Source: Planctomycetota bacterium
GTDB taxonomy: Bacteria > Planctomycetota > SZUA-567 > H5-PLA8
DNA length: 31,118 bases
NCBI GenBank assembly: GCA_038227875.1
Contig: JBBRPR010000086.1
Coordinates: 1 to 31,118, forward strand
Direction of reading: 5' to 3'
How positions within the stretch are numbered: the stretch's first letter is position 1; the number at the start of each line of letters is the position of its first letter. Positions 1 to 31,118 of this stretch are shown here, piece after piece. A model generated the notes under the pieces. It was given only the letters and a program-made list of their open reading frames with translations, was not told where the DNA came from and did no database searches. A program made the position numbers and the translations under genes.

Positions 1-138
1 CCCTGCAAAGTTCGAGCTTTGCGGGGACCTGCTGTTTTTATAACCGTCCGAAATCTTCTGCGGCCTACTGACCGCATCGGCGCAGATTAGCGCGAGAATT
101 ACTGCTGTCTACGATGCAATACTGTGAGAGCCCTGACA
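1..138 (-). mobile_element. Left copy of a 138-bp terminal inverted repeat; probable transposon or transposable-phage end facing outward
   Basis: Exact reverse complement of 30979..31116. Ends ...GAGAGCCCTGACA at 138 (5'-TGTCAGGG on the minus strand) and abuts CCGGG. It interrupts a PAS-domain ORF. The repeat is certain; the identity as a mobile-element end is inferred. Confidence 0.8.
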
Positions 139-2205
139 CCGGGTGCGCCGTAGCGATGGCTTGTGGCGTTGGCTTATGATCCGTGGCGTGCCGATTCTGG
201 ATTCGACAGGGAGAGCCAAAGAATGGACCGGTTCCACTCTCGATATCACGGATCTCAAAAACGCTGAATTAGCGTTTAAGGCAAGCGAAAGCGACTTTCG
301 CTTGCTTGCCGAGGCAATGCCACAAATTGTCTGGGCAACGCGGGCTGATGGCTGGAATACCTACTTCAACAAACAGTGGGTTGACTATACGGGAATGTCC
401 CTGGAAGCCACGGGCACGGCTGGAATATCCCCTTTCACCCGGATGATCGCAAACGAGCCTGGGACGCGTGGCAGGGCGCAGTACAGGGAAATTCTGAATA
501 CTCGCTCGAATGCAGACTGAAACGGCACGACGGCGCATATCGCTGGTGGTTGATTCGCGGTGTTCCGGTACGCGACTCCAACGGAAATATACAACGATGG
601 TTTGGAACGTGCACTGATATTGAAGACCTTAAACAGAGTCAGCAAAAAGCGTTGACGACGCAAGCATTATTAGCTGAAGCGCAACGTATTGCGCACATCG
701 GAAATTGGACGTGGGACTCAGTAAACAACGTGGTCTGGTGGTCCGAGGAGTTATTCAATTTGTATGGAAAGACTCCTGGATCGGCACCACCGACGTACGA
801 AGAGGATCAACGAAATTACACGACAGAAAGCGCCGCGCTTCTGAGCCGCAAGGTGATTGAAGCGTTGCGGGAGGGCAAGTCCTACGAAGTCGAGTTGGAA
901 TTGAATCAAAAACTATCTGGCCCCGCACGGTGGGTGTCCGCAAGAGGCGAGGCTGTTCGGGATGCAAGCGGGAAAATCATTGGGCTCCGCGGAACCGCGC
1001 AGGACATTACCGATCGCAAACTGGCGGAGATCAAACGCAATGTCCTGGAAACGCAGCTGCTCCAAGCGCAAAAAATGAAGGCGATTGGAACGCTGGCCGG
1101 CGGCATTGCGCACGATTTTAACAATATACTTTGCATCATCATGGCCAATACGGCAATGCTGGATGCGGCCCTGGACGAGGGGCAGAAAGCAAAACAATAT
1201 TTGCATCCGATTATAAAGGCTGGCGAGCGGGCCAGCGATCTGATTAAGCATCTACTGGCCTTCGGCAGTCCCAAGGATCTCAAAAAGACTGTCGTGAACT
1301 TTGACAGCTCGATTGACAACTCGCTTAAGCTATTGCGCGCAACAATTCCCTCTTCCGTGGCGATTAACGTACGACTGGGCACGGGCAAGGCCGGAATACT
1401 CGCTGATGAAACGCAAATTCACCAGGTTGTAATGAATCTCGTCACCAATGCATGGCAGGCAATCCCCAAAGGAACGGGCACGATCGACATTTTCACGGAC
1501 GTAATTGAAACGGGTTCCGAAACCACGCCTACCGGCGAGACGCTTCCGCCGGAGCGCTATGCCCGTTTACAGATTCATGACAACGGGCACGGCATACCAA
1601 AGGAGATGATCGGGCGTGTATTCGAACCTTTTTTCACCACAAAAGGCGTTGGCGAAGGAACAGGGCTGGGATTGGCAGTGGTTCATGGCGTTACTCTAAA
1701 CCATGGTGGATCAATTGCGGTTGAGAGTGAAGTGGGCGTTGGCACAACTTTTAAATTGCTTTTTCCAATCCTATCAGAGGCGACTTCCAGCTCCGAGCCC
1801 CATCAAAAATCCGCGTCTCCGACGCCTGCAATAAAAACGGGCGCTCGGTTGTTTGTAGTTGATGACGAGGTCGACTTGCTCGCCCTCATTCAAGAATGTC
1901 TGTCGAATCTCGGATACACCATCGTCGTGTTTAACTCCCCGGAAAGCGCACTGTCGGTGCTTCGAAATATGGATGAGAGATGCGATCTGCTGATAACGGA
2001 CCTGTCGATGCCAGAGATGACGGGGCTTCAGTTGATCGAGGAAGTGCGCAAGTTGCGGCCGTCGTTACCCGCGATCATGGTCACGGGTAATGCTACTCCC
2101 CAAACGCGGTTATCCACTGAGCGACTGGGCGTCCAACTACTGCCAAAACCATGGAGGATTTCTTCGCTTAATGGCGCAGTTCAAAATGGATTGAAGTTAA
2201 GTTAG
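139..2205 (+). pseudogene. 5'-truncated, frameshifted multi-PAS hybrid histidine kinase (PAS/PAC-HisKA-HATPase-REC)
   Basis: Begins mid-PAC motif (RVRRSDGLWRW) at the repeat junction. A frame change at about 404-408 joins TGMSLE to SHGHGWNIPFHPDD. H-box GGIAHDFNNIL, N-box QVVMNLVTNA, G boxes DNGHG and GTGLGL, F-box FEPFFTTK, receiver motifs VVDDE, DLSMP and LPKP. Confidence 0.88.
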
Positions 2206-2220
2206 CGAGTCAAATTGAGA

Positions 2221-2257
2221 GCCCCATCTCCATTATCCTTAAAAATGGAGATGGGGC
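2221..2257. terminator. 14-bp perfect inverted repeat between convergent genes; probable bidirectional terminator
   Basis: GCCCCATCTCCATT-N9-AATGGAGATGGGGC. No clear U-tract. Confidence 0.55.
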
Positions 2258-2292
2258 ACCTTCCAACGCTTCGTTGAGCTGACAGGCGTTGC

Positions 2293-2805
2293 TCAGTGCG
2301 CCGCCTTCGCGCTCTCCGCCGTGTCCTTCAGTTCGCCCTGCGAGAGGATGCAGTCGGCGTCCAGGAGGATGATCACGTTCTTGCCGACCTTGGCCATGCC
2401 GAGGATGAACTCGGTCGAGATGTTGACTCCGAATTCCGGGGTCGCTTCGATCTGGTCGGCGTTCACGTTCAGCACTTCCGAGACCGTGTCGACGATGATG
2501 CCCATCGTGATGATCGAATCCCCGCGCTGCACCTGGACGACGACGATGCAGGTCCGTTCGTTGTCGTCTTTGGCGTCGAAGTTCAGTTTGCGGCGCAGGT
2601 CCAGCACCGCGATGACCTTGCCCCGCAGGTTGATCACGCCGCGGATGTAATCCGGCGCGCGCGGGACGCGGGTGACGTTCATGATGCCGATGATCTCCTG
2701 CACCTTCAGGATCTCCAGGCCGTAAAGCTCCCCGGCGAGGTTGAAGGTCAGGTAGCGTCCGGCGCGCGCGGTCACTGCACTCTTTTCACTGGCTTTGGTG
2801 CTCAT
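2293..2805 (-). CDS. cheW: Chemotaxis coupling protein CheW
   Basis: YLTFNLAGELYGLEILKVQEII...ITRVP-like VTRVPRAPDYIRGVINLRGKVIAVLDLR...GIIVDTVSEV. AAGGA RBS favours ATG 2805 over 2814. Confidence 0.95.
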   Translation of the reverse strand: MSTKASEKSAVTARAGRYLTFNLAGELYGLEILKVQEIIGIMNVTRVPRAPDYIRGVINLRGKVIAVLDLRRKLNFDAKDDNERTCIVVVQVQRGDSIITMGIIVDTVSEVLNVNADQIEATPEFGVNISTEFILGMAKVGKNVIILLDADCILSQGELKDTAESAKAAH

Positions 2806-2842
2806 GCGATTCATTCCTTTCGGGAAGACTCCGCCTTGGCTT

Positions 2843-4588
2843 CTAGAAGCCGCTCAGTTCCTCGTCCGTCAGCGGAATCGCCACGGATGCCTTGCGCTTG
2901 CCGTTGCCATTGCTCGTGCCATTGACGTGCCCCTTCGCGTGTCCGTTTAGCGTTGCGACGCGGTTGGTCGGTACGTGGACCGCGCTGGCCTTGCGGGCGG
3001 CCTTGGGCGCGGGCGCGTAGTGAGACTTCGCCGGCGCGACGGTCTGCAGCTTCTCCGCGCGCTGCGGAGGAGGCGGCGCGCTTCCGGCTTCGCTGGAGCC
3101 GCGGATCAGCTTGATCAGCGCGTTGACCATGTCCTGGAGCTCGCGGGACTGCGCGGAGAGTTCCTCGCTGGCGGAAGCCGACTCTTCGGCGTTGGCGGCG
3201 TTGGACTGGGTCACCTTGTCCATCTCACTGACGGCCGTGTTGATCTGCTCGACGCCCTTCGACTGCTCGCCGCTGGCGGCGGCGACTTCGCCGATCAGCT
3301 GCTTGACCTTGTTGGCTGCATCAACGGTGTTGGAGAAGCTCTTGGCGATCTCCACTTCGACGGCGCGCTTGAGGATCTCGGAGACCTCCGACGAAGCCTT
3401 CACGCCGTTTTCGGCATTGCGCTGGGATTCTTCGATCAGCGCCGCGGTGTTCTTCGCCGCTTCGGCTGAACGCTGGGCGAGATTGCGGACCTCTTCGGCG
3501 ACGACGGCGAAACCCTTGCCCGCTTCACCGGCTCGAGCGGCTTCGACGGCGGCGTTCAAGGCCAGCAGATTGGTCTGGAAGGCGATCTCGTCGATGGTCT
3601 TGACGATCTTGGCTGTCTGGTCCGCGGAGCTCTTGATCTTCTGAATCGCATCGTTCATGCCGCCGATGCGCGCGGTCAGTTCGCCACCCATTTTACGCGT
3701 GGTGTTCTGGCCGGCTTCCGCGGCGGAACTGGCTTCATCGGAGACCGCGCGTGCAGCGCGGGCGTTGTCGGCGTTCTGGCGGGTCATCGAGGCCATTTCT
3801 TCCAGCGACGCCGAGGTCTCTTCGAGACTCGACGCCTGTTGGCTGGCACCGGACGCCATGCTCTGGCTGGACTGCGCCACCTGCGTGGCGGCCGCGGCAA
3901 CCTGTTCGGCGCTCGAGCGCAGGGTCATGGCGATGGCGTTGAGCGATCCGTTGACGTTGCGGGTGATCCCGAATGCGGCGACGCCGCCCAGGGCCAGGGC
4001 CACAAGCAGCGCGATCAGGATGCCCCATTCGGATTCAGAGAGCAAATTCGCGATGCTCACTGAACTGGCGTTGCCAACGTCCTTGTTGTATTCGGAGAGC
4101 GCGTCGATGGCGGACATGTATCCGGAAAATGCAGGCATCACTTTGGATTTCCAGACCAACAGACCTTCGGTGTTCTTCTCCGCGTGGATCAAGGCGATCA
4201 CTTCGTTGTAGGCAAGCAGGTACGCAGCTCGTTTGGATTTAAGCGTCTCGTAAAGTTCCTTGTCGCGCGCTTCAAATATCGTCTGGGCGTATTTATCCAG
4301 GATGGCTGTCGTTTTGGTGCGGCCTTCATCGTAGCGGCGTTCGCAATCCGCCAGTTCCGCTTTGTCCACTGCAGTGAACATGGAATGAAGCGCCATGAGG
4401 TTATCTTTCACCTGTGCGCGAGCCTCGGACATCAAGTAGACGCCGGGCAGACTGTCTTCCGTGATGCTGTGGGCAATCTTGCTGATCGAGATCAACCGCG
4501 AGCGCGCAAAAATTCCCAAGGCAACTGTGATGGCCAGCGTCAACGCGAAGCCGCACATTATTTTCTTGCCCACCGTAAAATTACTCAT
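2843..4588 (-). CDS. Methyl-accepting chemotaxis protein (TM, four-helix sensor, TM, signalling domain, C-terminal tether)
   Basis: Hairpin tip [44 protein letters not shown]. Two hydrophobic segments. Low-complexity linker ending [18 protein letters not shown] before ATG 4588. Confidence 0.95.
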
Positions 4589-4644
4589 GACGACGATCTC
4601 CAATTCTGTTGGCGCTCACACTGAGCAAGCCTGCATCAAGAGTG

Positions 4645-4660
4645 GCATTCGCCGTGCCAA
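4645..4660 (-). promoter_or_regulatory. Putative sigma54 (-24/-12) promoter of mcp-cheW
   Basis: Minus strand TTGGCACGGCGAATGC has GG-N10-GC and a full TGGCACG, about 57 nt upstream of the MCP start. Confidence 0.65.
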
Positions 4661-4904
4661 GACTGAGAAGCATGAAACAGGAAATAGATGCTGGAATCGG
4701 AAGACTTTCAGGCCGAAAGTTCCGGAAATGTCATTACGATGTCCGATTTTTACCACTTTTGGGAATGCAGTATTCCGTACGGTCGACTGCTCAATTTGCC
4801 AGAATACGTGAGACGATTCACCCCCAACCTTTCGTAGTGCTGATTTATTCGAGTCTTTAAGTTGAGGACGCATGTGCTTCGTTCCGCTCGTCGCCAAGTC
4901 TCGT

Positions 4905-5018
4905 TTAGAAGCCGCTCAGTTCATCGTCGGTCAGGGGGATTGCCACGGAGGCCTTGCGTTGCTCGTGCCGTAGGCCGTGCGCGCACGCGCGGTTTCTGCC
5001 GAGGCCAGCGCGGCTCAT
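4905..5018 (-). pseudogene. Remnant or mini-copy of an MCP 3' end; 37-codon [40 protein letters not shown]
   Basis: The last 17 codons plus stop match the MCP tail at 2843..2896 with 7 differences, all at third codon positions. Confidence 0.75.
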
Positions 5019-5033
5019 CCGAACTTCCAATTA

Positions 5034-5049
5034 GCTCAGGACGTGCCAA
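5034..5049 (-). promoter_or_regulatory. Second putative sigma54 promoter, directly upstream of the MCP-tail remnant
   Basis: Minus strand TTGGCACGTCCTGAGC (GG-N10-GC). The -12 element is degenerate. Confidence 0.5.
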
Positions 5050-5220
5050 TTTTGTTTTTCCCGAAAACTCAGAACGGTTTGCCGAAATTGTCCATCGGAC
5101 GGCAGAAATTAATGAGGATTGAATAAATGTAGAAGCTCGAATTGAGACAATCATCTATTCCGGCGTCGATCTCAGAATTAAATAGCGTACTTCCACGAAT
5201 GAGAAATGGTGGCGCGCAAT

Positions 5221-6657
5221 TCACTGCGCATTCCCAAGTCGGATGGGCGGGTTGGTCTGGTAGAGCACCGGGCCTCGAACCATCGACTTGAGCAGGCGCG
5301 GCATATCGTTCGTTTCGGGAGGAAGATCGGCGGGTTCGATCGATTTGATTTCGACGCCTTCGATTTCCTCGTTGAACCAGATGAGCGCGAGGTCCCGGGC
5401 TGGGATCTGCGCGGGGTACTCGTCGACGATCGTGATCTGGCCGTTGAGGGTTTGAACGACGTAGCGGCCGAAGACGTAGTTGACGATTGTCGGGATGTTC
5501 TTCCCGACGTCGTCGATTTTGACGACTTTGTAACCCGAGCGGCGAAACTGCGTGTTGGAGTTCTTGTCGAACCACTGCACGCAGGTGCCACCGTTGCCTT
5601 TGGCGTCTTTCAAAAGGAGTTGCGACGAGACCGTGACGGCCACCGGGAGTTGATCGATCGCGACGGGCAGACGAAGGCCGGTGTTGGTGTTGAATTCCGG
5701 CGTCAAGCGCGCAGGGCGTTCGCCATCGGCGGCGTGCCAGGTCCACGTGGAGAGAACCATGTCCTGGAGATCGGCGGGCGGTCCCTTTTCGAACGTCCAC
5801 TTGCGGTAGAGCTTTGACGGCGCAGCCGGTGCGGTAGTCAAAACCGCTGCAGGCTGTTTCAGGAGATACCAACCGCCGGCTGCTACACAGAGCAACGCGA
5901 CAGCCCAAAGGGATTTTGCGGCGGCGGAAGAACCGCGCGCAGGCGCTTTCGCGCGGAGGCTCGAGCGCTGAAGCTGTTTGAGCAGCCGCGGTGCCAGGTG
6001 CGGTGGCGCGCGGTGACCGGAGTGAAACAGATCGCCGAGACCCTGTTCATTGAGCAGGGGGAGCGCGGCGCCGAATCCGGCTGCGCCCAGGCCGACACGC
6101 AGATGGCCGAGGATCTTCTTGATGCGCGCCGAGACGGCCTGCTGCGTGATCGAGAACGTCTTGGCCAGCTCGCCCTGGCTCAGGCCGCCACCAAAGTGGA
6201 GCGCCAGGAGCTGGCGGTCGGTTTCGGGGAGCGCGTCGACCAGATGGCGCAGGCCTTCGCGCGTGTCCTGATCTTCAGCGCCGACGACGGCCGAGCGGTC
6301 GGCGCTGGCGGCCTCGCCGGGGTCGGATTCATCGATGGACTGCATGGCGTGCCTCTTTCGTTTGCGGATATGGCGGAGACTTTCGCGCGCGACGATACGC
6401 AGGAACCACGAGCGCGGCGTACCGTCACCCCGGTAGTCGGCGACTTTGGCCCAGACGCGGATGAGTGCTTCCTGCACCGCCTCCGAGGCATCGTCGGCGT
6501 TTCCGGTGATGTGAAAGGCGAGACTCGACGCGCTGTGTTCGTGCCGTTTGACAAATTCGACAAAAGCATCCGTGTCGCGCGTGGAGGCCGCGCGATTGAG
6601 CAGTTCTTCGTCCGCCAGGTTGGCGTGCACGGCCACGGATTCGTTCACGGGTGTCAT
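5221..6657 (-). CDS. ECF sigma factor with a long C-terminal extension (TM helix plus extracytoplasmic domain)
   Basis: Region 2 (DASEAVQEALIRVW...PRSWFLRIVARE) and region 4 (LPETDRQLLALHFGGGLSQGELAKTFSITQQAVSARI), then TM LWAVALLCVAAGGWYLL and about 200 aa of beta-rich sequence. Start uncertain (6657 or 6675). Confidence 0.85.
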   Translation of the reverse strand: MTPVNESVAVHANLADEELLNRAASTRDTDAFVEFVKRHEHSASSLAFHITGNADDASEAVQEALIRVWAKVADYRGDGTPRSWFLRIVARESLRHIRKRKRHAMQSIDESDPGEAASADRSAVVGAEDQDTREGLRHLVDALPETDRQLLALHFGGGLSQGELAKTFSITQQAVSARIKKILGHLRVGLGAAGFGAALPLLNEQGLGDLFHSGHRAPPHLAPRLLKQLQRSSLRAKAPARGSSAAAKSLWAVALLCVAAGGWYLLKQPAAVLTTAPAAPSKLYRKWTFEKGPPADLQDMVLSTWTWHAADGERPARLTPEFNTNTGLRLPVAIDQLPVAVTVSSQLLLKDAKGNGGTCVQWFDKNSNTQFRRSGYKVVKIDDVGKNIPTIVNYVFGRYVVQTLNGQITIVDEYPAQIPARDLALIWFNEEIEGVEIKSIEPADLPPETNDMPRLLKSMVRGPVLYQTNPPIRLGNAQ

Positions 6658-6665
6658 CTCTGGAG

Positions 6666-7529
6666 TTACAAACACACTTTCAACGCGTCGTGCGTGGATT
6701 CAAATTCGTTCGCGTGAAGTTCAGGCGCAGCGGCCACTGAACCGGCCGTGAGCGGATCGAGCAGCACCAACTCCGGCGCCAGCGGCACGGTCTCGCCGGC
6801 TACGATGCGCACGGCCAGCGTCACGGACAATCCCGCGGCGGTGTACGAGCCCGGACAGAGCTGCGAGATCGGACAGACGTTGCCTGCGTCGAGAATCTGG
6901 CTCAACACGCCCAGCGCATACGGCGGGAAAACGGCCGCGTAGCGGCGCATCAGCCGCGCGAAGGCGGAAACGAAGTCCGGAACCGAGGCGTAGGCGTCGT
7001 GACCGAGCAGTTCGGCCAGCGAGGGTCCGCGCGGATGAAAAACCAGCGCCGCCCCACCCCAGCCCACGGACATCGGTGCGACGACCGGAATCCCCTGCTC
7101 GCGCGCGGTGGCGTGGAGCGCCCGAATCGCCAGCGGCGAGCGAAAGTCGATGGTGTCGACGATCACGCCGGCTCCGTGGAGCAGACGCGCAGCGTTGTCT
7201 TCATCGAGGAACTTAGGGACCGATTCGATCTGCGCGTGAGGATGGATGGCGCGGAGGCGTTCGGCGACGGCGTCGGTCTTCGAGCAGTCGACGTCAGAGT
7301 TGCGGAAATTCTGGCGGTTGAGATTGTGGGCTTCGACCCGGTCGCCATCGATCAGGCGGATGTGAGTAAAGCCCGTGCGCAGCGCGGCTTCGGCGATGAC
7401 TCCGCCGAGCCCGCAACCGGTGATCACCAGCGTCGTATGCCGCAAGCGCTTCTGCAAAGCGCCGGGGATGAAGGCCTGATTGCGGGCCGTCAGTGTGTTG
7501 TAGGCGTTGTCCTCAATCATGGTGCGCAT
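6666..7529 (-). CDS. ThiF/MoeB/HesA family (E1-like) adenylyltransferase
   Basis: VITGCGLGG, LIDGDRVEAHNLNRQ, K-x-D and IVDTID motifs. No CxxC zinc pairs seen. Confidence 0.88.
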   Translation of the reverse strand: MRTMIEDNAYNTLTARNQAFIPGALQKRLRHTTLVITGCGLGGVIAEAALRTGFTHIRLIDGDRVEAHNLNRQNFRNSDVDCSKTDAVAERLRAIHPHAQIESVPKFLDEDNAARLLHGAGVIVDTIDFRSPLAIRALHATAREQGIPVVAPMSVGWGGAALVFHPRGPSLAELLGHDAYASVPDFVSAFARLMRRYAAVFPPYALGVLSQILDAGNVCPISQLCPGSYTAAGLSVTLAVRIVAGETVPLAPELVLLDPLTAGSVAAAPELHANEFESTHDALKVCL

Positions 7530-7620
7530 CTCCCTTTAGGGGTGTGGGCCGTTCTACACTGCTGACCGTTGCGATAAGCGGGCTACAAACGGAAAGTCGA
7601 AATATTTTGGAACTTCTTCT

Positions 7621-8397: not shown

Positions 8398-8416
8398 CGT
8401 GATTCCTTTGAGATGT

Positions 8417-10237: not shown

Positions 10238-10356
10238 GGGGTTTCAAGCTCCGGGTGAACGGTGATGACTCGCCGCGAGCTTAGCGCAGGAATCGGGCTG
10301 GCGGTGGACAATTCTATCGAACAGGAAATACGGTGTATCCTGGTTGTATCCTTTTT

Positions 10357-10530
10357 GTAGTCCGGGCGTCTCGCCCGGTCACCTTCCCCACCCCGGCGAA
10401 AGTTTACACTCGGATTGGCACACTCTCCCGCGAGAGCACAGTTTGTTTCGCTTCGCAATCGAGTTGCCCTCCGATCAGAGTACGGGTACTGCTTTCGCCA
10501 AGGTTAGACCGGGCGGGACGCCCGGACTAC
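10357..10530. repeat. GTAG-type REP doublet (REPIN-like long hairpin)
   Basis: GTAGTCCGGGCGTCTCGCCCGGTC (10357..10380) and its inverted copy (10507..10530) match at 23/24 positions. Each has a 7-bp stem, and the inner arms also pair (GGCGAAAG/CTTTCGCC). Confidence 0.8.
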
Positions 10531-12530: not shown

Positions 12531-12554
12531 GTTATCGGTCCTTGATTGTTTCCC

Positions 12555-17631: not shown

Positions 17632-17664
17632 GCACGACTGTTACGACTACCACGGCTGGGGCGG

Positions 17665-22239: not shown

Positions 22240-22453
22240 AAGCGGTGTCCTCAGTTGAAAGCACATGCGCTGCACGTACGCGGTATGTTGTCAGAAAAGG
22301 GAAGACACAGACTGAGTAAATGTGAACATTTAAAAGAATTTTTATGCGTTAAATTAATGAACATGTGCAATTTTGATCTTTAAGCACCGCAAAGAAATAA
22401 GTGCCATTTTACACATTGAGCAATTTGACACAGGTGGGTCCGGCAAGGTAACC

Positions 22454-22462
22454 TGTCAGACA
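22454..22462. promoter_or_regulatory. Candidate FadR/GntR-type autoregulatory operator
   Basis: Palindrome TGTCAGACA just upstream of the GntR gene RBS. Confidence 0.35.
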
Positions 22463-22482
22463 TCATACATGGAGTGATTTTA

Positions 22483-23202: not shown

Positions 23203-23269
23203 TGGATTTTGCCGGAGGCCATGGTGGCCGGCCGGCGCTTAAACAGACTGATTCAGGAGCGGCGACGCA

Positions 23270-24091
23270 ATGGTTTTCACGGAGCAGCATAAGCAATTTT
23301 ACAAGCAGTTTGGGTACCTGCATTTTCCGGGTCTGCTCAACGACTGCATCGGCACGATCATCGATGAATTCGAAGCGGTCTGGGCGGCACGCAAGGACGT
23401 GCAGCACACCGGCGAGAAGCGGACGATGTTCCCGGGCAACTTCATCTGCCAGACCGAGCGGCTGTGCGCGCTGATGGACGATCCGCGCATCCAGGAGATC
23501 TGCACGGGCGTGATGGGCGCCGACTACCAGTACGCCGGCGGCGACGGCAACTTCTACAGCGGCGATACGCAGTGGCATTCGGACCTGATGCCCGAAACGG
23601 GCTTCTATAAGGAATGCGAGCACGTCAAAGTCGCGTTCTATCTTGATCCGGTCACGCGCGACACCGGCGCGTTGCGGGTGATCCCGGGCAGCCATATTCC
23701 CGGCGATAAATTCACCGATACGATGCAGGAATTTCTCGGCAAGTCCGGACTGGCCGGGAAGGATGTGCCCGCGTCGGCGCTGGAGACGAAGCCCGGCGAC
23801 GTGGTGCTCTTCACGCACAATTTAAAGCACGCGTCCTTCGGCGGCAGCAAGCGTCGGCGCATGTTCGTGATGAACATGCAGGCCATGCCGCATACTCCGA
23901 TCGGTCATAAGGAAGTCCGCGCGGAGTGGACGTATTACGCCAGCGTCGGCGTGAAGAAAATGCATTCGGGATTGATTATGGATTCGGCCTCGCCGGAACG
24001 GCTAAAGCACCTGCAGCCGCTGTGCGATCTGATTCAGCCGATGCTGGATGAGTACCATGCGAGCAAGGCGAAGGAGATGCAGCCGGCGTAG
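23270..24091 (+). CDS. Phytanoyl-CoA dioxygenase (PhyH) family Fe(II)/2OG enzyme
   Basis: WHSD, GALRVIPGSH, PGDVVLF...LKHAS...RR motifs. CAGGAG RBS. Confidence 0.9.
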   Translation: MVFTEQHKQFYKQFGYLHFPGLLNDCIGTIIDEFEAVWAARKDVQHTGEKRTMFPGNFICQTERLCALMDDPRIQEICTGVMGADYQYAGGDGNFYSGDTQWHSDLMPETGFYKECEHVKVAFYLDPVTRDTGALRVIPGSHIPGDKFTDTMQEFLGKSGLAGKDVPASALETKPGDVVLFTHNLKHASFGGSKRRRMFVMNMQAMPHTPIGHKEVRAEWTYYASVGVKKMHSGLIMDSASPERLKHLQPLCDLIQPMLDEYHASKAKEMQPA

Positions 24092-24141
24092 GTTGTATAT
24101 TTTTGAATCTTGAATTCTTAATTTGAATTGCAGTCTTTCGT

Positions 24142-24177
24142 AAAGCAACTCGCCGCTGAAATGCGGCGAGTTGTTTT
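24142..24177. terminator. Bidirectional intrinsic terminator between convergent genes
   Basis: AAAG-CAACTCGCCGC-TGAAAT-GCGGCGAGTTG-TTTT, 11-bp stem. Confidence 0.8.
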
Positions 24178-24220
24178 CTGTTCATTCCTTTTTCGACATT
24201 CGAAATTCGAACATTCACTT

Positions 24221-27200
24221 TCAGTACTTCACCTCCCCTACCATGCGAATGTTGGCGCCGCCGACGGCTCCGGGAACCAGGCAAAACGGCACGACGGTGG
24301 GATGCTTCACGATGCCGTCTTGCGGCTTCATGATTACCACCACGCCGCGCGAGACGCCCATCGGGCCGGCGTTGAAATAGGTCACGCCGACGGAGTACGT
24401 GCCGGTCATCGCGCGTTCGCAGCGGATTACTTCCGGTCCGAGACCTTGTGTCTGGTCAGAGTACAGTTCCAAGCCCGATGCGTTGCGCATGTGGCTGTAG
24501 AAGCATTCTTCGCCGTTGGGGTCGACGACGTGAAGGTCGACGTCGTTGGCGTCGGTTTCCCACGCCAGGCTGACGCGGAAGGCATCTGTGCGGCGCATGT
24601 CCTGTTCGGCGTGATGGAACTGCGCGAAGTTGAACGCCGCGTCCTTATCCTTCTGCGCCCACGCGCGCAAAATGTAGCCGAGTTCTTCGTGAAGTACGCG
24701 ATGAACGTCGCCGTAACGCGCGTTGTAGTCGATCTGGATCGCGCCATCCAATTCCTTCGCGGCGAGATCGTATTTTTCCTGCATCCACAGAGCGAGCGCG
24801 AGGCTGCGGTAGAGGTTCGCGTCGTCTTTGCGGTTCTTCAGGGCTTCGCGGAACATCTGTTCGGCCATTTCATTCTTTTCGGCGGTGAGCAGCAACCAAC
24901 CGGCTCGGGCCAGCAACGCAGCGCGGTTGGGAGCGACTTCGGCGATGGAGGTCATTGCGCGCAGCGCCAGTTCCTTGTCGCCGAGCCCCGTAGCGCTCTT
25001 GCCGAGGTATTCGAAGACCTGCGGATTTTCCGGATCGAACGGCAGCCATTCGAACGCCTGGCCCTGAAGTTCGTCCCACTTCTTTGCGGCGAAGAGCGCG
25101 TCGGCGTAGGCGTTGCGCAGATTGCGGTCGCGCGGACTGCCGGCGACCTGTGCGTGCAGGGCGTCGAGCTGCGCAGCCGTCGGCGGCGTGCTGAACTGGC
25201 GGGTCCATTCGGGGGCGTTGGATTTAGCTGCGACGGCATTTTGCACCTCGGACTGAAGTTGCCGTGCGCGGGGCAAGTCCGACGCGGGTTGTGGATCGTT
25301 GACGACGGGCGCAACTGGGCTGGGGCCGCGCTGTACGGCATCTGCACGGTTGGTGGTCACCGTGCTGGTCTCTGCCAATTGTTCCCTGATGCCTCCACCT
25401 GCGCCATTTCCTGGTCCGCCATCGCCGGCAATGTCGGGCATCGATTGTGCGGCAAATGCATTACCCGGGTCACGAGTCCCGGCCGAACGATCGTCGGCCT
25501 TGTCCATGGCTTCATCTGAATCGCCTGGCTTTCCGTCTTTGCCTTCGCCATCTAACCTCTGGGCTTGTTGTGCCGTGGCGCTGCGGAGAGCCGTAGGTGT
25601 TGGGGCTTCTGGAGCAGGAGCACCACCGTCCTGTCTCCTGCTCGAATCTTCCTTCTTACCCTTCATTGGCGCACCACGATGCACCGCCTGAACCGCAGGC
25701 GGCAGTGCGGGTGCGGTGCGGTGGAGCATCGCGATGCCGGTTTCGTTGATGCTCATGATGTCCGCCAGTGAAGTTCGGTTGATTCCGAAGCGGACGTAGT
25801 CGTTTTCCGATTCGAGCACGAGCAGCGAGGTCAGCGGGCAGAGCACGCGGTTTTTCTCGGAGAGTTCGATGCGCTGCTTGCGCAGTTCGGCGAGCTTCGC
25901 GGGCGCGGCGGTCTGTTCGGCCTGTTCGAGCTGATTCAAGTACGCGGCGATCGCTTCGCGCTGCAGCAGCGGCGCGAATTCAGGGACGGTGGTCGGCGTG
26001 GCGGTGAGCGCAGTTTCGACCGGTTTCTCGCCGACCTTCTTGGTGAAGACGCCGGCTTTGCTCGTCTTTCCGTCCTGAAGTTGCGAGAAGACGACGAGTT
26101 CCGTTGCGCCACGAATGTCGCGGAAGGTCTTGGGGTAGATCCACGCAGCGGATTCGTCGTAAAATTCGTAGGTCTTGCCGAGCGGTTCGGTCAGTTCAGT
26201 GATCACGCGCGGGATGTCGGCGTCGACGTTGTTGGTGAGCGGCAAGGTCACGACGCGGCCGTGACCTTTGTCGACCAGCGCGCTGAGCGTTTTTTCGTCC
26301 TGCTTGCTGCCGATCACCAGCGCGTGGAGCGTGTGGCGGTCCGGCCAGTCACCGAGCGCCGCGAGCAGATCGCGAACTTCGCGCGCGCCCAGTGTGGCGA
26401 TGCCGTCGGAGACAAGGATGAAATTCTGGGGCCGCTGCTCAGCACGAGCGGATTCGCCGATGTGTTTGAGCGCAGCTTCCAGATTCGTTGCGCCGAGGAC
26501 GTGGCGTTGTTGAAGGAACATCGCTCCGGCACCATAGGTCGGCGCAGCATCTTTCATGCTGCGATTCATTTTTATCTTTAGGTTCGAAACATCGACATCA
26601 AAAACCGATATTGAAAGGAATTCGTCTCCCTTTTCGTTGTGCTGATTGATGTAGTCAAAAAGCGATTGAGTCGAATTGTATCTCGCCTTCGCAATATCCG
26701 CATTCGACGCCGATGTATCAAAGTAGAAGTTCCAATCCTTCGGCGCTTCCGAGCGCTTCGTGTACTCCTTCGGCGTGGTGAAGCTGATCATCTGATAGTT
26801 GCCGGCCGTGATCGCGCGGATGTTGGCCGCGTCGCCGGAATCCGCGCGGAAGGTCAGCACCAGGTCGCTCTGCGGCGCGTAGTCCTTCAACGGCGTCGAA
26901 GCGAACGAGCGGCGGCCTGCGTTGGCGCTGTCTTTGCCGTCGAAGCCGGCGATCGGGTCGAGTTTCTGACCGGCGACGTCGTTGACGATCGCCGAATACG
27001 TGAAGAGCCCGATCTTCGGGATGCCGGCCAGCGGGATCGAGATTTTGCGTTCGCCGTTCTTCACCGGCACGACTTGGGAGTACGAAAGAAGCAGGCGGAC
27101 AGTGCCTTCCGCAGCGATCGGGAAAACACGCGCGGAGAAGCGGTTGCCCTGATCCATCTCCAGCAGTGCCGGGTCGCGCATGGTGTGTAGGACCTGCGTG

Positions 27201-27547
27201 TAAACTGACTGTGCGCGGAGCCTCTCGACGACTTCACCTTCCATCAGAACGCCGTTGACCTCTTTGGCGAAGCGGCTGATCGTCGCGCCGGGCGGGAGGA
27301 CATAGAGGAAGCGGCCTTCCATCTGGCGTTTTTCAGGATTGCGAAAGACCATCTCCATTTCGGTGAGGTTCAGCGGGCCGTCGATGGCAACGCGGAGGTC
27401 GTATTTCTCAAGTGTCAGCGCCTGTCCGTCGGGGTTGGTCAGCGAGATGGGACAGGGTATGGCGTTCTCGACTGCATGCGGCCGGGAACCCAACAGTCCA
27501 GCAATAATGACGGCGGCGAGAGCAATTCCAAAAATTTTGAACTTCAT
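24221..27547 (-). CDS. Secreted VIT-vWA-TPR-DUF2135(YfaP-like) protein
   Basis: Signal peptide. VIT domain (FRNPEKRQMEGRFLYVLPPGA...GEVVE...DPALLE). MIDAS residues DTSAS, GAT and SDG. LTSLLVLE. TPR-like helices. C-terminal RVSLAWETDANDVDLHVVDPNGEECFY...GLGPE. Confidence 0.87.
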   Translation of the reverse strand: MKFKIFGIALAAVIIAGLLGSRPHAVENAIPCPISLTNPDGQALTLEKYDLRVAIDGPLNLTEMEMVFRNPEKRQMEGRFLYVLPPGATISRFAKEVNGVLMEGEVVERLRAQSVYTQVLHTMRDPALLEMDQGNRFSARVFPIAAEGTVRLLLSYSQVVPVKNGERKISIPLAGIPKIGLFTYSAIVNDVAGQKLDPIAGFDGKDSANAGRRSFASTPLKDYAPQSDLVLTFRADSGDAANIRAITAGNYQMISFTTPKEYTKRSEAPKDWNFYFDTSASNADIAKARYNSTQSLFDYINQHNEKGDEFLSISVFDVDVSNLKIKMNRSMKDAAPTYGAGAMFLQQRHVLGATNLEAALKHIGESARAEQRPQNFILVSDGIATLGAREVRDLLAALGDWPDRHTLHALVIGSKQDEKTLSALVDKGHGRVVTLPLTNNVDADIPRVITELTEPLGKTYEFYDESAAWIYPKTFRDIRGATELVVFSQLQDGKTSKAGVFTKKVGEKPVETALTATPTTVPEFAPLLQREAIAAYLNQLEQAEQTAAPAKLAELRKQRIELSEKNRVLCPLTSLLVLESENDYVRFGINRTSLADIMSINETGIAMLHRTAPALPPAVQAVHRGAPMKGKKEDSSRRQDGGAPAPEAPTPTALRSATAQQAQRLDGEGKDGKPGDSDEAMDKADDRSAGTRDPGNAFAAQSMPDIAGDGGPGNGAGGGIREQLAETSTVTTNRADAVQRGPSPVAPVVNDPQPASDLPRARQLQSEVQNAVAAKSNAPEWTRQFSTPPTAAQLDALHAQVAGSPRDRNLRNAYADALFAAKKWDELQGQAFEWLPFDPENPQVFEYLGKSATGLGDKELALRAMTSIAEVAPNRAALLARAGWLLLTAEKNEMAEQMFREALKNRKDDANLYRSLALALWMQEKYDLAAKELDGAIQIDYNARYGDVHRVLHEELGYILRAWAQKDKDAAFNFAQFHHAEQDMRRTDAFRVSLAWETDANDVDLHVVDPNGEECFYSHMRNASGLELYSDQTQGLGPEVIRCERAMTGTYSVGVTYFNAGPMGVSRGVVVIMKPQDGIVKHPTVVPFCLVPGAVGGANIRMVGEVKY

Positions 27548-27920
27548 AGGCGCGTCTCCAATGTGAGCCGCGAACTTAGACGCAGAGTCTTAACATTGGT
27601 TTCGAAGTATTTATTGTGCACTTGGTTACAGAAATCAGTTCAGTCCATGGGGATGGCGTTACGATAAAAATTAAGCGGAGAATTTCCACCTTCTTAGAAG
27701 AAATTTCCGAAGTAGGTCTTGAAAAAAAAGAGAAACCGGGCAACTTAGATGTCAGTCAACAAAAGCACGAGTGAATCAGGGGGATGACCGGGGTTAGGAT
27801 TTTCCTAATATTCGGTCCGCGCGGACTTCTGTTGCCTTTGTAAAGTGTTGCACTCTTTCATATTGTCGAGAGTGCAAGTTGTGGGGTAAAATGGGTGTGG
27901 GGGGCGGGGAAAACCAATTC

Positions 27921-28532
27921 ATGCGACACCTCACCTTATGTTTAGCCGGAACATTCCTCCTGATCGGTACCGCTGCGGCGCACGAGCCGGATACGATGCC
28001 CGATCCTGTGCTTCTCAAAAACGCTTCGGGCGATCGCGAAGCTGAGATTTCCAAGTCCGAACACGTGGCGATTTCCGTCAGCAGCGAAGTAACGCAGAAC
28101 GTGGCCGTCGATCCGGCGGCTCAGCCTGTCGCGCTGACGCTCGATGACCCGCTGGATCCTTCCGGCGTGGCGTACGACCTGACCATGTCGTGGATGAAGT
28201 CCGACGAGTGGCAGCAGAAGGTGGCGGCACTCAAAGCTAAATTTCAAGACTGGGAAAGCACCAACGGCGGCGACATCGGGCAGTACCTCAACGACCGGCT
28301 GGTCCTGGTCGCGATGGGCTGTGCCAATGGCCGAATCGATTCGATCAAGAATGGATTCGTGTGGCTGGCGTACTACAAGGAATTCAACCAGCAGGTACCA
28401 ACCGTTGTGGCCACAGTCATGCGCGATCACCACGCTTCACTGATGCGGCTGTTCAAAGACTTCACGTGGGAGAAAGCGTCGCAGTACGTGAAGAACAAGG
28501 AATGGCGCAAGGATATTGCAAAGAAGCAGTGA
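27921..28532 (+). CDS. Hypothetical exported protein
   Basis: Signal peptide MRHLTLCLAGTFLLIGTAAA, host-like codon usage, followed by a strong terminator. Confidence 0.75.
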   Translation: MRHLTLCLAGTFLLIGTAAAHEPDTMPDPVLLKNASGDREAEISKSEHVAISVSSEVTQNVAVDPAAQPVALTLDDPLDPSGVAYDLTMSWMKSDEWQQKVAALKAKFQDWESTNGGDIGQYLNDRLVLVAMGCANGRIDSIKNGFVWLAYYKEFNQQVPTVVATVMRDHHASLMRLFKDFTWEKASQYVKNKEWRKDIAKKQ

Positions 28533-28559
28533 CGACGAGATCCAAGATTGGGAACGACG

Positions 28560-28583
28560 AGCAGCCTTCGGGCTGCTTTTTTT
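28560..28583 (+). terminator. Intrinsic terminator
   Basis: AGCAGCC-TTCG-GGCTGCT followed by a T run; C(UUCG)G tetraloop. Confidence 0.9.
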
Positions 28584-28712
28584 ATCGCACGCAAAGCCGC
28601 TAAGACGCCAAGAACGGCAAAGAACAAACGGATCCAGAATCAGTTCTCATAAGCCAATGCCAGATTCCAAATCCGTTGCCGTACTTTGCGGCTTCGCGGC
28701 TTCCCGTGCGAT
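28584..28712. repeat. Imperfect 29-bp inverted repeat built from 8-9-nt (C)GC-N-AAG units
   Basis: ATCGCACGCAAAGCCGCTAAGACGCCAAG (28584..28612) versus the reverse complement of 28684..28712: 24/29 identical. Confidence 0.7.
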
Positions 28713-28841
28713 TCGAAACTCAGCACGCGACAAAAAATGATCACTCATCGTGGCGGCATGAGCAGAAGGAATAGCGCGTAACGGTTTTAATGCATGGCGT
28801 TCGGGGAACACCAGGGTCATCCCCGAAAAAAAGGAGCCAGC

Positions 28842-29582
28842 ATGAACGTAGCGACGGGCATTACGATTACCGAAGAACAGAAAAAACAGTACCGCGACGA
28901 AGGATTCTTTATTCTTGAACGGGTTGTTCCTGAGGACCAACTGGCGCTGGTGCGCGCCGAATGCGACGGTTTTGTCGAACGCCAGATACAGCAAACCCCT
29001 CCCGATCAATTCGATCGCAAGAACGAGCGTTACTTCATCGCCGAATGCTACAAGCAGCGCAATCAACTCGGCGAATTTGTCTTCGGCGACGTGATGGCCG
29101 AGATCTGCAAGGCGACGATCGGGCCGGACGCGTACCTCTTTTACGATCAGTTCGTGGTGAAAGGCGCGGAAGTCGGGATGAAATTCGGCTGGCATCAGGA
29201 TTCCGGCTACGTCGGCCACCCTCACCGCCCCTACCTGACCTGCTGGTGCCCGCTGGACGACGTCTGCGTTGCCAATGGCACGGTGTACGTGTTGCCCTAC
29301 TCCCGCGCCGGCACTCGCGAGGTCCAGCCGCATGTCTACAACGAAGAGACGAAGGATAAGATCGGCTACCACGGCGCGGATCCGGGCGATCCAGTGATTG
29401 TACCAGCCGGCAGCATCGCCGTTTTCTCGAGCACCACGTTTCACCGCAGCGGAGCCAACACGACCAGCAAGCGCCGCCGCGTCTACGTGGTTCAGTATTC
29501 GCCGGAAGTGATTCTCAACAAGGAAGGTACCGCGCCCTCGTCGCAAGCCGTGCCGTTCTTGAAAGACGGCAAGAAACAGTAG
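28842..29582 (+). CDS. Phytanoyl-CoA dioxygenase (PhyH) family Fe(II)/2OG enzyme
   Basis: QYRDEGFFIL, WHQDSGY, TCWCPLDD...NG and FHRSGAN...RR motifs. AAGGAG RBS. Confidence 0.92.
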   Translation: MNVATGITITEEQKKQYRDEGFFILERVVPEDQLALVRAECDGFVERQIQQTPPDQFDRKNERYFIAECYKQRNQLGEFVFGDVMAEICKATIGPDAYLFYDQFVVKGAEVGMKFGWHQDSGYVGHPHRPYLTCWCPLDDVCVANGTVYVLPYSRAGTREVQPHVYNEETKDKIGYHGADPGDPVIVPAGSIAVFSSTTFHRSGANTTSKRRRVYVVQYSPEVILNKEGTAPSSQAVPFLKDGKKQ

Positions 29583-29596
29583 TCAGCAGGCACTTA

Positions 29597-29643
29597 GCGG
29601 AAGGCGGCAATGAAAGGCGAGCCCTTTTGTTGCTGCCTTCCGC
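29597..29643 (+). terminator. Long stem-loop downstream of the second PhyH gene
   Basis: 21-bp stem (GCGGAAGGCGGCAATGAAAGG / CCTTTTGTTGCTGCCTTCCGC) whose three non-Watson-Crick pairs are G-U on the plus strand. No U-tract. Confidence 0.5.
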
Positions 29644-29756
29644 CGTCCACGAACCAGACATCGCGTTATCCATTTGCAATCCACAGCCGAGCAGAGTAAT
29701 TTGTCCCCGCCTTTGAACACGCTTCGTTGCTATTCGACGAAGTCCGCCATTCCCAT

Positions 29757-29832
29757 CGGGGCGTAGCTCAGCTTGGATTAGAGCGCTGCGTTCGGGACGC
29801 AGAGGTCGCAGGTTCAAATCCTGTCGCCCCGA
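29757..29832 (+). tRNA. tRNA-Pro (anticodon CGG), CCA not encoded
   Basis: Acceptor CGGGGCG/CGCCCCG-A, D arm GCTC/GAGC, anticodon arm CTGCG-TTCGGGA-CGCAG, T loop GGTTCAAATCC. Confidence 0.97.
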
Positions 29833-29924
29833 TATCCTATAGTTAACTACTTCATGCCGTTGCTCCCAGTTCGATCCAGCACCTATCAAGTACATGTGAA
29901 CCAACACTGATTTACGTACGGCAA

Positions 29925-30314
29925 CTACCGCGAATGAGTCTTGGTTCTTTCCGCTTCACGTATCACATCGGTGTTATCGATTACGTCGTCTCGTTCAGAG
30001 ATTAGAGCCGGCTTTTCGGAATGACGGCGGGTTGAACGACGAATTAGGAATTCACAAAGGAGCGCTGTTCCGCCGAGCGGCAATAAGTGCATCATCAGCA
30101 GGATCGCAGTTTGCAGGGGATTCCTGTAAAAAAGACCTATGACGCTAAAGTTCTTGGCTGCTCCCGGATTTTCTGCCAGAACTCTTTCAATATGCTTAAT
30201 GATTAAGGCATCCGCCAAGGCCAGGCCGGCGCCCACAAGCATCAGCACCACCGCCGTGCTCAAATGGATCCTGAACCACGGTGTCTTCTTCCCGGCCCCG
30301 TCCACATTCATCAT
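29925..30314 (-). CDS. Small two-TM membrane protein with N-terminal WFRIHLSTAVVLM motif
   Basis: Two hydrophobic helices followed by an Arg-rich stop-transfer segment. GAGG-like RBS upstream. Confidence 0.7.
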   Translation of the reverse strand: MMNVDGAGKKTPWFRIHLSTAVVLMLVGAGLALADALIIKHIERVLAENPGAAKNFSVIGLFYRNPLQTAILLMMHLLPLGGTALLCEFLIRRSTRRHSEKPALISERDDVIDNTDVIREAERTKTHSR

Positions 30315-30494
30315 GGTCTAAACGTACTTCATCCGTGGCCTTCTGAAAACTGAATACGACGGAGCGTGGCTCGGCAATGATTAAGGCGCGTGGATTCGCC
30401 AGGTTCAGCCATTGAATCAGTAGCACACCTCTCACATCCCTGTAAAGTCATACCTACACAACAAAAAATTGAGGCCCGTCGCGAAGGAATCTCC

Positions 30495-30978
30495 ATGTCT
30501 CATTCCAAACTCAATCCTCATCCCCGCCTTTACATTACCGCAGAACATCTTCATCGGCTTCACATGCCGGCCGCGAATTCGGCGCTGGAGGCGGCGGAAA
30601 AAATTGTGCGCGCGGATGCGCAGCGGTTGCTCGGAGAATTGAGCATTACGGTCAGTGAGGGCCAGCACAACTGGCACTTGCTCCGCGCTCGCGCCATGCA
30701 GCGCAACGTGCTGGCGCTGCTGACGGAATTCATACGCACGGGCGACGCGCGCTTTCGCGACGCGGTCCTGGCGTGCGTCAAACAGATGGCGGAATGGGAA
30801 TACTGGTCGTGGATTACCTGGCGCAAAGGGGACGCGCGGCCGGAAGCGATCTTCGATCTGTCGTATGGCGAGAATTCAACCACGTTGGCGGTCGCGTTTG
30901 ATCTTCTCGTTGAGACACTGAATGAGGCCGAACGCGATCTGTTCGTTCAGACGGCGCAACGCCGCGCATTCAAGCCGT
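30495..30978 (+). pseudogene. N-terminal part of a heparinase II/III-like (DUF4962 / alpha-toroid lyase-like) protein, cut by the terminal repeat
   Basis: AAGGA RBS plus ATG 30495, HPRLY motif, DLSYGE...LAVAFDLL...L...ER helix pattern. The reading frame runs into the repeat after RAFKP. Confidence 0.7.
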
Positions 30979-31118
30979 TGTCAGGGCTCTCACAGTATTG
31001 CATCGTAGACAGCAGTAATTCTCGCGCTAATCTGCGCCGATGCGGTCAGTAGGCCGCAGAAGATTTCGGACGGTTATAAAAACAGCAGGTCCCCGCAAAG
31101 CTCGAACTTTGCAGGGAC
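30979..31118 (+). mobile_element. Right copy of the terminal inverted repeat; probable transposon or transposable-phage end facing outward
   Basis: Starts TGTCAGGGCTCTCACAG after GCCGT. 30979..31116 is the exact reverse complement of 1..138. Ends in a 30-nt near-palindrome. Confidence 0.8.

Follow-up and report, generated by a model that had tools for sequence, protein, structure and literature searches.

The window, by which we mean the whole stretch of DNA analysed (31,118 nt; G000:C86:1-31118), is one entire contig of a metagenome bin of 9.34 Mb, which comprises 176 contigs and is 88% complete. Its features, together with the two gene parts that lie on other contigs of the bin, are listed here in order of position, with the two copies of the IS at its ends called A and B.

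1..138, + strand: right end (RE) of IS copy A, last 138 nt; body beyond the contig start, terminus ...GAGCCCTGACA at base 138
1..40, + strand: terminator-like hairpin CCCTGCAAAG-TTCGAG-CTTTGCGGGG followed by a T-run, part of the RE and oriented towards its terminus
139..143: target-site duplication CCGGG, 5 bp, of IS copy A; partner adjoins the left end (LE) at C34 bases 140-144
143..520, + strand: PAS-domain ORF interrupted by IS copy A, 3' part of 125 codons; weak PAS/PAS_3 matches
144..30973: chromosomal DNA between the IS copies; no mobile-element family by Pfam on 23 ORFs
30390..30978, + strand: heparinase II/III-like gene interrupted by IS copy B, 5' part of 196 codons
30974..30978: target-site duplication GCCGT, 5 bp, of IS copy B; partner adjoins the LE at C7 bases 140-144
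30979..31118, - strand: RE of IS copy B, last 140 nt, in the opposite orientation to copy A; body beyond the contig end
C34:141-407, - strand: 5' part of the PAS-domain ORF (89 codons from ATG), across IS copy A
C7:141-1526: remaining 461 codons of the heparinase II/III-like gene, across IS copy B (Hepar_II_III_C, 4.3e-08)

The interior is ordinary bacterial chromosome with housekeeping and signalling genes. Products recognized by Pfam include two-component kinases, CheW, MCP, a sigma-70 factor, ThiF, SDR and FAD oxidoreductase, as well as a beta-lactamase-fold protein, a 1536-aa He_PIG/PKD/Kelch protein, GntR, PhyH and a VIT/VWA/TPR protein; a PAS/HisKA/HATPase/receiver kinase occupies 550-2205, just downstream of the PAS-domain ORF at the left junction. 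A preliminary description made from the letters alone had seen no mobile-element gene between the two caps, and the Pfam scan agrees: none of the 23 large ORFs in the window matches a transposase, integrase, capsid or replication protein, and five of the 23 match no family.

The same description had drawn attention to identical inverted caps, and bases 1-138 and 30979-31116 are indeed exact reverse complements, with the TG...CA terminus facing the host DNA on both sides as claimed. In a repeat search on the window the arms extended to 1-142 and 30975-31116 at 99% identity, the added 4 nt being host flank that matches at three of four positions. The right cap carries two further element bases (31117-31118), and the depth into the element is 138 nt on the left and 140 nt on the right.

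Two ends of a multicopy element

The RE, defined by ...GAGCCCTGACA abutting host DNA, has 10 copies in the bin (98-100% identity), nine of them at contig ends that retain 116-252 nt of the element and one at an internal site (C135:3584-3700). Because the same 138-mer is found 10 times and the host flank that follows ...CCCTGACA is different at every one of these copies, the match between the two caps is not a chance event. The terminator-like hairpin of the RE is found also in the copy on C54 (11 pairs, six of them G-C). The longest RE, of 252 nt, had no match in phage and plasmid collections, and the RE had none in Rfam.

A second and different end, which the preliminary description had proposed looking for, is also present in the bin. 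This LE (...GATTCCCGACA abutting host DNA) caps 11 contig ends, with 139-141 nt of the element retained, and it pairs with the RE through target duplications: comparison of the flanks of 10 RE and 11 LE copies gave six pairs with an exact reverse-complement 5-mer and one more with a 6-mer, against a chance expectation of about 0.1, and three controls (same strand, offsets 5-10 and offsets 10-15) gave no pairs at all. Both junctions of the window are among the pairs, the left with C34 and the right with C7. The bin thereby holds at least 14 distinct sites of the IS, of which seven are paired, three are known from the RE only and four from the LE only. That three RE and four LE junctions lack a partner in the bin is expected at 88% completeness, though this is not proven.

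The terminal inverted repeats are imperfect (TGTCAGGGCTCTCAC... and TGTCGGGAATCAC..., with the pattern TGTC(A)GGG..TCAC..GTA) and weak, with an ungapped match at eight of the first 12 positions. Differing ends at one site, a short duplication of fixed length, and multicopy sites that interrupt genes are the properties of a two-ended DDE IS.

Interrupted genes and the arrangement of the two copies

Both junctions cut protein-coding genes, as had been noted from the letters alone, and the missing halves are found on C34 and C7, with the reading frames restored across the junctions. When one copy of the duplication is removed, the left junction yields an open frame of 237 codons (112 + 125) and the right junction one of 659 codons. 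In a relative's multi-PAS gene the two PAS parts abut in one shared frame (1731-1501 and 1500-1219), and the two heparinase-like parts abut in the same frame in four of four uninterrupted orthologues from relatives. On this sequence evidence we read the chromosome as continuous from the window to C34 across IS copy A and to C7 across IS copy B.

Two inverted IS copies that bracket a segment, as in Tn5 and Tn10, can also be the ends of a composite transposon, in which the copies and the intervening 30.8 kb have moved as one unit, and the opposite orientation seen here is what such a unit has. A composite, however, predicts one duplication, at its outer ends, whereas each copy here has its own (CCGGG and GCCGT); each copy also interrupts a gene, with one half directly on its inner side and the other directly on its outer side, the interior consists of ordinary housekeeping and signalling genes, and an RE-to-RE arrangement of two neighbouring copies has a one-in-four chance of arising anyway. 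We regard the composite as very improbable.

Intramolecular replicative transposition, or recombination between IS copies, could alternatively have inverted the segment, and such events do leave inverted copies around an inverted segment. Here they would have parted the halves of each duplication, but the 5-bp duplication is perfect at copy A as well as at copy B, and across each copy the split gene reads on in frame, with its two parts in the same orientation. Inversion is accordingly scarcely credible: since each copy has a 5-bp duplication of its own, the two are independent simple insertions.

Contig ends, read depth and the k-mer length

Capping by repeats is widespread in the bin. Of 352 contig ends, 193 start in a repeat that is present elsewhere in the bin (at least 95% identity), and at 103 of these 193 the repeat is 135-143 nt long, with a mode of 141 nt and exactly that length at 62 ends. 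More than 13 unrelated repeat families are involved, and two further contigs, C1 (346 kb) and C24 (121 kb), likewise carry one repeat inverted at both ends. The contig C54, which reaches 252 nt into the IS, does so exactly 140 nt past its innermost private SNP, a run that is predicted by a k of 141. In another bin, a contig with 'k141_' in its title begins 139 nt inside this RE; we take 'k141' to be MEGAHIT default naming.

Contigs from two public runs show what lies beyond the caps, extending about 3.0-3.6 kb past base 1 of the window. Record 1 of run X1 (3068 nt, depth 363) overlaps bases 1-51 and runs on beyond base 1, and record 17 of run X3 (3729 nt, depth 35.6) covers 1-138 and begins exactly at the terminus. 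The 138-mer end is matched at 100% identity in contigs of both runs, of which X1 is possibly the sample behind the bin and so not fully independent. The preliminary description had suggested comparing the coverage of the repeat with that of the host: in run X1 the pieces with IS ends have a depth of 314-388 against 10.5 for the host, about 30 times the host value, these record depths being sums over all organisms in the sample and not copy numbers. The element is about 3.1-3.7 kb long, a figure taken from record lengths and not from a second end seen in them. Its body is absent from the bin and from the collections searched. A Mu-like prophage would measure about 35-40 kb and carry capsid and tail genes between its ends; it was rejected, the record that starts at the terminus being only 3729 nt long and the RE having no phage match.

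The preferred reading, in which we have high confidence, is that a multicopy two-ended IS flanks this piece of chromosome with two copies in opposite orientation, and that the contig breaks off inside each. A DDE-type IS of about 3.1-3.7 kb would have inserted twice, once in the PAS-domain gene and once in the heparinase II/III-like gene, in opposite orientations that would leave both right ends facing the 30.8-kb segment. A de Bruijn assembler with a final k of 141 would then have failed to resolve a repeat longer than k, and each unique contig would stop about 138-141 nt into it, which accounts for the two matching caps. Contig breaks at multicopy IS are standard behaviour of short-read de Bruijn assembly, and the present caps differ in nothing from such breaks: they share the clustering at 141 nt, the SNP-limited extension, and a body that is missing from the bin yet present at high depth in a run. 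Of the option that the preliminary description had favoured, the two inverted insertions of an active multicopy element hold, as does a contig break at a repeat depth of roughly one k-mer (k near 141), whereas its Mu-like phage falls with the 3729-nt record and its replicative inversion with the duplications at each copy.

The other options in that description took the caps for physical ends of DNA, formed either by a single-ended, telomere-forming transposon or by a tagmentation-like capping system. The bare appearance of the contig, with the same outward-facing end on both sides, is all that speaks for them. They are refuted as far as assemblies show, with a probability that is practically nil: the LE pairs with the RE by target duplications, the neighbouring chromosome and the missing gene halves lie on C34 and C7, contigs from the public runs pass base 1 by 3.0-3.6 kb, and over half of the bin's contig ends lie about 141 nt inside repeats of many unrelated families. 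Nor do the capped contigs share the uniform length that was to be looked for, since they range from 4 kb to 346 kb. An artefact (vector, adapter or chimeric assembly) as the source of the 138-mer is of negligible probability, with nothing found in its support and, against it, ten distinct junctions with target duplications, the presence of the 138-mer in a second bin and at 100% identity in the contigs of two runs, and a 252-nt RE that matches nothing in the phage and plasmid collections or Rfam.

Predicted gene content, relatives and meaning of the element

Some indication of what the body encodes comes from the internal RE copy on C135. There an IS21-family element with TGTCAGCGCC termini, different from the present IS, is inserted at RE position 21/22, and on its far side the contig includes exactly 139 nt of an AAA_22 ATPase fragment (C135:1-139, E 9.6e-05), which the insertion separates from RE position 22. 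The exact 139-nt extension identifies this fragment as repeated DNA. It is 100% identical to P0001, a 274-aa AAA_22 protein found only on contigs of at most 4 kb. No target duplication flanks the IS21-like insertion, which shows the locus to be rearranged, and the fragment may come from a different repeat.

In genomes G152 and G169, relatives of P0001 come directly after a transposase of about 455 aa with rve and Mu-transpos_C domains, and on plasmid pGS18 one comes after a gene with the annotation 'IS481 family transposase'. Genome G169 has eight P0001 matches, and the four copies compared share a 3.79-kb unit that is about 99.9% identical and has TG...CA ends. The IS body probably encodes an rve/Mu-C-type DDE transposase and then a 274-aa ExeA-like AAA_22 ATPase, whose gene would lie in this IS and may be transcribed towards the RE. 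By analogy with MuB, IstB and TniB, the ATPase would help to choose or capture target DNA.

Transposons with an rve/Mu-C transposase and an ExeA-like AAA_22 ATPase have two or three genes, often with a DUF6431 gene first, and the Geobacillus plasmid pGS18 provides an example ('IS481 family transposase' plus 'AAA family ATPase') whose ATPase is 36% identical to P0001. In G152, G169 and pGS18 the ATPase relatives come directly behind the gene for a DDE transposase of about 416-455 aa or overlap it by a few bases, and the multicopy G169 element, at 3.79 kb and with TG...CA ends, resembles the present IS, for which we estimate 3.1-3.7 kb. P0001 differs from these relatives in sequence, with at most 36% identity to plasmid records and at most 50% to genomes of the same phylum.

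The IS21 family has an IstA transposase with an IstB AAA+ helper, TGT termini and a target duplication of about 5 bp. The present element is similar in its TGT termini, its duplication of about 5 bp and, as far as its predicted genes go, its DDE transposase with an ATPase helper, but the predicted ATPase is AAA_22/ExeA-like and not IstB_IS21. Mu, Tn7 and Tn5053/Tn402 combine TG...CA termini and a 5-bp target duplication with an rve-fold transposase and an AAA+ partner. The likeness to MuA/MuB, TnsB/TnsC and TniA/TniB lies in the termini, the duplication and the Mu-transpos_C domain of the relatives' transposases; at about 3.1-3.7 kb, however, the present element is far smaller than Mu or Tn7, and it has no known capsid, TnsA/D/E, TniQ or resolvase gene.

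The IS appears to be uncatalogued and of a known type, so the biological novelty is small. At least 14 sites in the bin and a depth about 30 times that of the host fit an expanding element. A bolder reading, which we consider unlikely, combines an uncatalogued, recently expanding DUF6431/rve-Mu-C/ExeA-like AAA+ transposon with an RE that carries a putative promoter-plus-terminator small-RNA unit, and with an inverted pair that might act as a composite and move the 30.8 kb.

The caution to draw is that a metagenome contig with identical inverted caps bears the mark of a de Bruijn assembler with a k of 141 at a multicopy IS, and that such caps should not be taken for biological ends of DNA. The target duplications allow seven pairs of contigs to be ordered and oriented, and C34-IS-C86-IS-C7 joins about 333 kb into a scaffold. 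The genome itself is heavily loaded with several active IS families.

The window's caps and the depth of contig breaks

A search against genomes showed the window to be the entire contig C86 (positions 1-31118) of bin G000 (9.34 Mb, 176 contigs, completeness 88%), so features placed exactly at both window ends are features at two contig ends. As the preliminary description had observed, window 1-138 and 30979-31116 are exact reverse complements of each other, and the TG...CA terminus faces the interior, with unrelated host sequence directly after ...GAGCCCTGACA on either side. Two extra element bases are present at the right end, and the contig thus stops 138 nt (left) and 140 nt (right) inside the repeat. 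The interior is the ordinary chromosome that had been proposed: when the 23 large ORFs were compared with Pfam, five had no family, and the others were ordinary chromosomal genes with no mobile-element family among them. The genes named by Pfam include the following.

PAS/HisKA/HATPase/receiver kinases, CheW, MCP, sigma-70 factor, ThiF, SDR
FAD oxidoreductase, beta-lactamase-fold protein, GntR, PhyH, VIT/VWA/TPR protein
17665-22275, minus strand: 1536-aa He_PIG/PKD/Kelch protein

The last of these carries nine He_PIG Ig-like repeats, from 261-nt DNA repeats at 18.6-20.8 kb, along with PKD and Kelch; it is probably a large protein of the surface or adhesin type.

The 138-mer, here called RE for the right end of a multicopy insertion sequence (IS), occurs 10 times in the whole assembly at 98-100% identity, and the flank beyond the terminus is different in each copy, which answers the first check that had been suggested. 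Contig ends account for nine of them (C86 twice, C109, C72, C11, C54, C153, C42, and C60), and the sole internal one is at C135:3584-3700. Such capping is widespread in this bin. Sequence present elsewhere in G000 (at least 95% identity) begins 193 of the 352 contig ends; the repeated stretch measures 135-143 nt in 103 of these and exactly 141 nt in 62, and the capped ends fall into more than 13 unrelated families. When all 352 ends were clustered against one another, the repeat families had 30, 20, 17, 11, 9, 9, 8, 7, 6, 6, 5... members. Contigs C1 (346 kb) and C24 (121 kb) likewise have one repeat, inverted, at both ends, so C86 is not special, and capped contigs range from 4 to 346 kb rather than sharing the uniform length that was looked for. 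Contig C54 retains 252 nt of the IS, and its innermost private SNP is RE position 27; position 27 minus 140 gives the 114 extra bases observed, as a de Bruijn graph built at k = 141 would produce. In another bin, too, a contig begins 139 nt inside RE; its title bears the prefix 'k141_', which we take to be MEGAHIT default naming. Contig breaks inside multicopy IS copies are a known phenomenon.

Target duplications, restored genes, and the order of contigs

Contigs of four public sequencing runs (X1-X4) were placed on window 1-3000, for which 99% of sampled words are present in X1, possibly the source sample. The comparison of repeat and host coverage that had been proposed gave, in X1, depths of 314-388 for pieces on RE versus 10.5 for the host contig (record 6, window 111-3000), these depths being sums over all organisms and not copy numbers. 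Window 1-51 is covered by record 1 of X1 (3068 nt, depth 363), which extends ~3017 nt past base 1, and an X3 record (3729 nt, depth 35.6) covers window 1-138 and begins exactly at the terminus; there is therefore neither a DNA end nor a phage-sized element at this place. The lengths of these records put the IS, a high-copy repeat, at about 3.1-3.7 kb. Contigs of X2 and X4 covered only parts of window 1-3000 and did not bridge the insertion site. One X2 contig has a loose end, GATGTGTATAAGAGACAGA, at window place 775, which resembles the Tn5 mosaic-end (Nextera) adapter; it would be adapter carry-over in X2 contigs, unrelated to the window caps.

A second, different end, whose existence had been raised as a check, was found as an 11-member contig-end family (LE) with the terminus ...GATTCCCGACA abutting host sequence. 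From the outside inwards, the two ends read TGTCAGGGCTCTCAC... and TGTCGGGAATCAC...; as an inverted repeat they are weak, with ungapped identity at 8 of the first 12 positions. Among the 10 x 11 combinations of RE and LE junctions, six pairs have an exact reverse-complement 5-mer directly outside the termini and one additional pair has a common 6-mer, where chance alone would yield about 0.1 pair. No pair appeared in any of three controls (same strand, offset 5-10, and offset 10-15). Within G000, three RE junctions and four LE junctions stayed unpaired.

Paired RE/LE junctions with target duplications
C86-left with C34
C86-right with C7
C109 with C57
C153 with C67
C54 with C50
C60 with C74
C42 with C174

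The target of the C54/C50 copy is the 5-nt loop of a host hairpin, AAAAACCGGGCG-CAGAT-GCGCCCGGTTTTTTTT (C54 right flank, C50 left flank), which resembles a bidirectional terminator. No obvious consensus is seen in the six remaining target duplications.

The gene halves missing from the window were found on C34 and C7. With one of the two 5-bp duplication copies taken out, the flanks were joined by script, and open frames resulted across both junctions: 237 codons (112 + 125) at the left (C34/C86) and 659 codons (199 + 460) at the right (C86/C7). The C7 continuation contains Hepar_II_III_C (E 4.3e-08), and in all four relatives with an uninterrupted orthologue of this heparinase-like gene (46-47% identity), the window and C7 parts are in-frame and meet at the same codon. 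The evidence from the PAS ORF is weaker because of PAS repeats: only one of 20 relatives gave a match, in which the two parts abut in one frame. Since the gene halves rejoin in frame over the junctions, the real chromosomal order is C34 - IS - C86 - IS - C7. The stop of the cut PAS ORF (window 143-520) lies 29 nt before the start of a kinase ORF (550-2205; PAS/HisKA/HATPase/receiver). They may originally have formed one multi-PAS kinase gene; alternatively, the first may encode a small PAS protein distinct from the kinase.

Each IS copy retains its own duplication, CCGGG and GCCGT, and the two copies are therefore independent simple insertions. Of the readings offered in the preliminary description, two inverted insertions of a multicopy element, with the contig broken about one k-mer deep, is thus supported in its IS form; its Mu-like phage form does not fit records of 3068 and 3729 nt. 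The replicative inversion suggested as the source of the same-end geometry is not borne out by the separate duplications, and these also led us to reject a composite insertion of the IS pair and, both being intact, an inversion through the IS copies. A telomere-forming transposon and a tagmentation-like capping system are refuted, as far as the assemblies show, by the second end, the paired duplications, and the sequence beyond base 1.

Probable gene content and sequence features of the IS

The IS body is absent from G000: nothing else there matches the innermost 114 nt of the C54 copy, and tblastn of the bin with an ATPase fragment, relatives' transposases, and a DUF6431 protein found only C135 and weak C138 fragments. 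C135 contains a copy of this IS that is interrupted at RE position 21/22 by a different element.

G000:C135:140-3583 (locus L011): complete IS21-family element with IstA, IstB, and inverted repeats

Its proteins are IstA (502 aa; NF033546, E 3.7e-83) and IstB (254 aa), with two unassigned ORFs (239 and 140 aa) upstream of istA, and its inverted repeats (52 nt, 81% complementarity) start TGTCAGCGCC. Ends related to it (80% identity) cap C116, C104, and C58. The contig runs on past its other side by exactly 139 nt, as expected of repeated DNA cut at k-mer depth. These bases encode an AAA_22 fragment (E 9.6e-05), read towards RE, whose sequence agrees at 100% identity with P0001; this 274-aa protein of the ExeA family occurs, as far as known, only on contigs of at most 4 kb. 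No target duplication was found at the IS21 element, so the C135 locus is rearranged and the link between RE and the ATPase is indirect.

In two other genomes, G152 and G169, the gene immediately upstream of the P0001 relatives encodes an rve + Mu-transpos_C transposase of ~455 aa. On plasmid pGS18, a relative (36% identical) overlaps an 'IS481 family transposase' gene, and a DUF6431 gene precedes. G169 has eight P0001 matches, and the four copies compared have a common 3.79-kb unit with ~99.9% identity and TG...CA ends. From these neighborhoods we infer that the IS would encode an rve-type transposase followed by the P0001 ATPase. MuB, IstB, and TniB provide an analogy for the role of the latter, which would assist target capture.

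A stretch of RE (G000:C54:59787-59895, L012:4787-4895, minus strand) contains a sigma-70-like promoter, TTGACA-17-AATAAT (11/12), and, ~55 nt downstream, an 11-bp hairpin with a T-run; promoter and hairpin are both oriented towards the terminus. The hairpin is also present in the window, at 1-26 and 31091-31116. Together promoter and hairpin they could be a small RNA of ~70-80 nt, or simply an operon terminator. Comparison of the 252-nt RE with Rfam, at E up to 1, gave no family, and the RE fold is not unusual (z = -1.9).

Distribution of the IS and richness of the genome in IS copies

The phage-database comparison that had been suggested was negative, the 252-nt RE having no match in phage or plasmid collections. 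RE and LE had no match in 40 relatives except one of 31 nt at chance level (E 7.5e-4). An exact 32-nt RE pattern had 0 matches in metagenome contigs, 0 in viral contigs, and one in genome contigs, again at a contig end, in a MAG that holds no further RE copy. This identical RE (L025, bases 1-139) caps a contig of another species-representative MAG, whose title names Terriglobales; the host part has 55% G+C versus 60% for G000 and does not match G000. This would mean either an IS common to organisms of such communities or a mis-binned contig. P0001 homologues occur in 112 of 301 genomes (300 of the window's phylum and G000 itself), none above 50% identity; no relatives were found in metagenome or viral contigs, and 401 genomes of the L025 MAG's phylum gave 0 at E 1e-50, a result that carries little weight. 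Given the lack of a match to the IS ends in the phage and plasmid collections and 40 relatives, and ATPase identity of at most 50% in the 300 genomes, the IS is probably a member, not yet catalogued, of a type already known.

Several of the end families in G000 can be matched, by their termini, as opposite ends of one IS: ...GGGGGCAGGTCA with ...GGGGAGCAGGTCA, and also the two ...GGATACCCCCC families. IS copies are unusually abundant in this genome, many of whose contigs could be scaffolded by way of target duplications.
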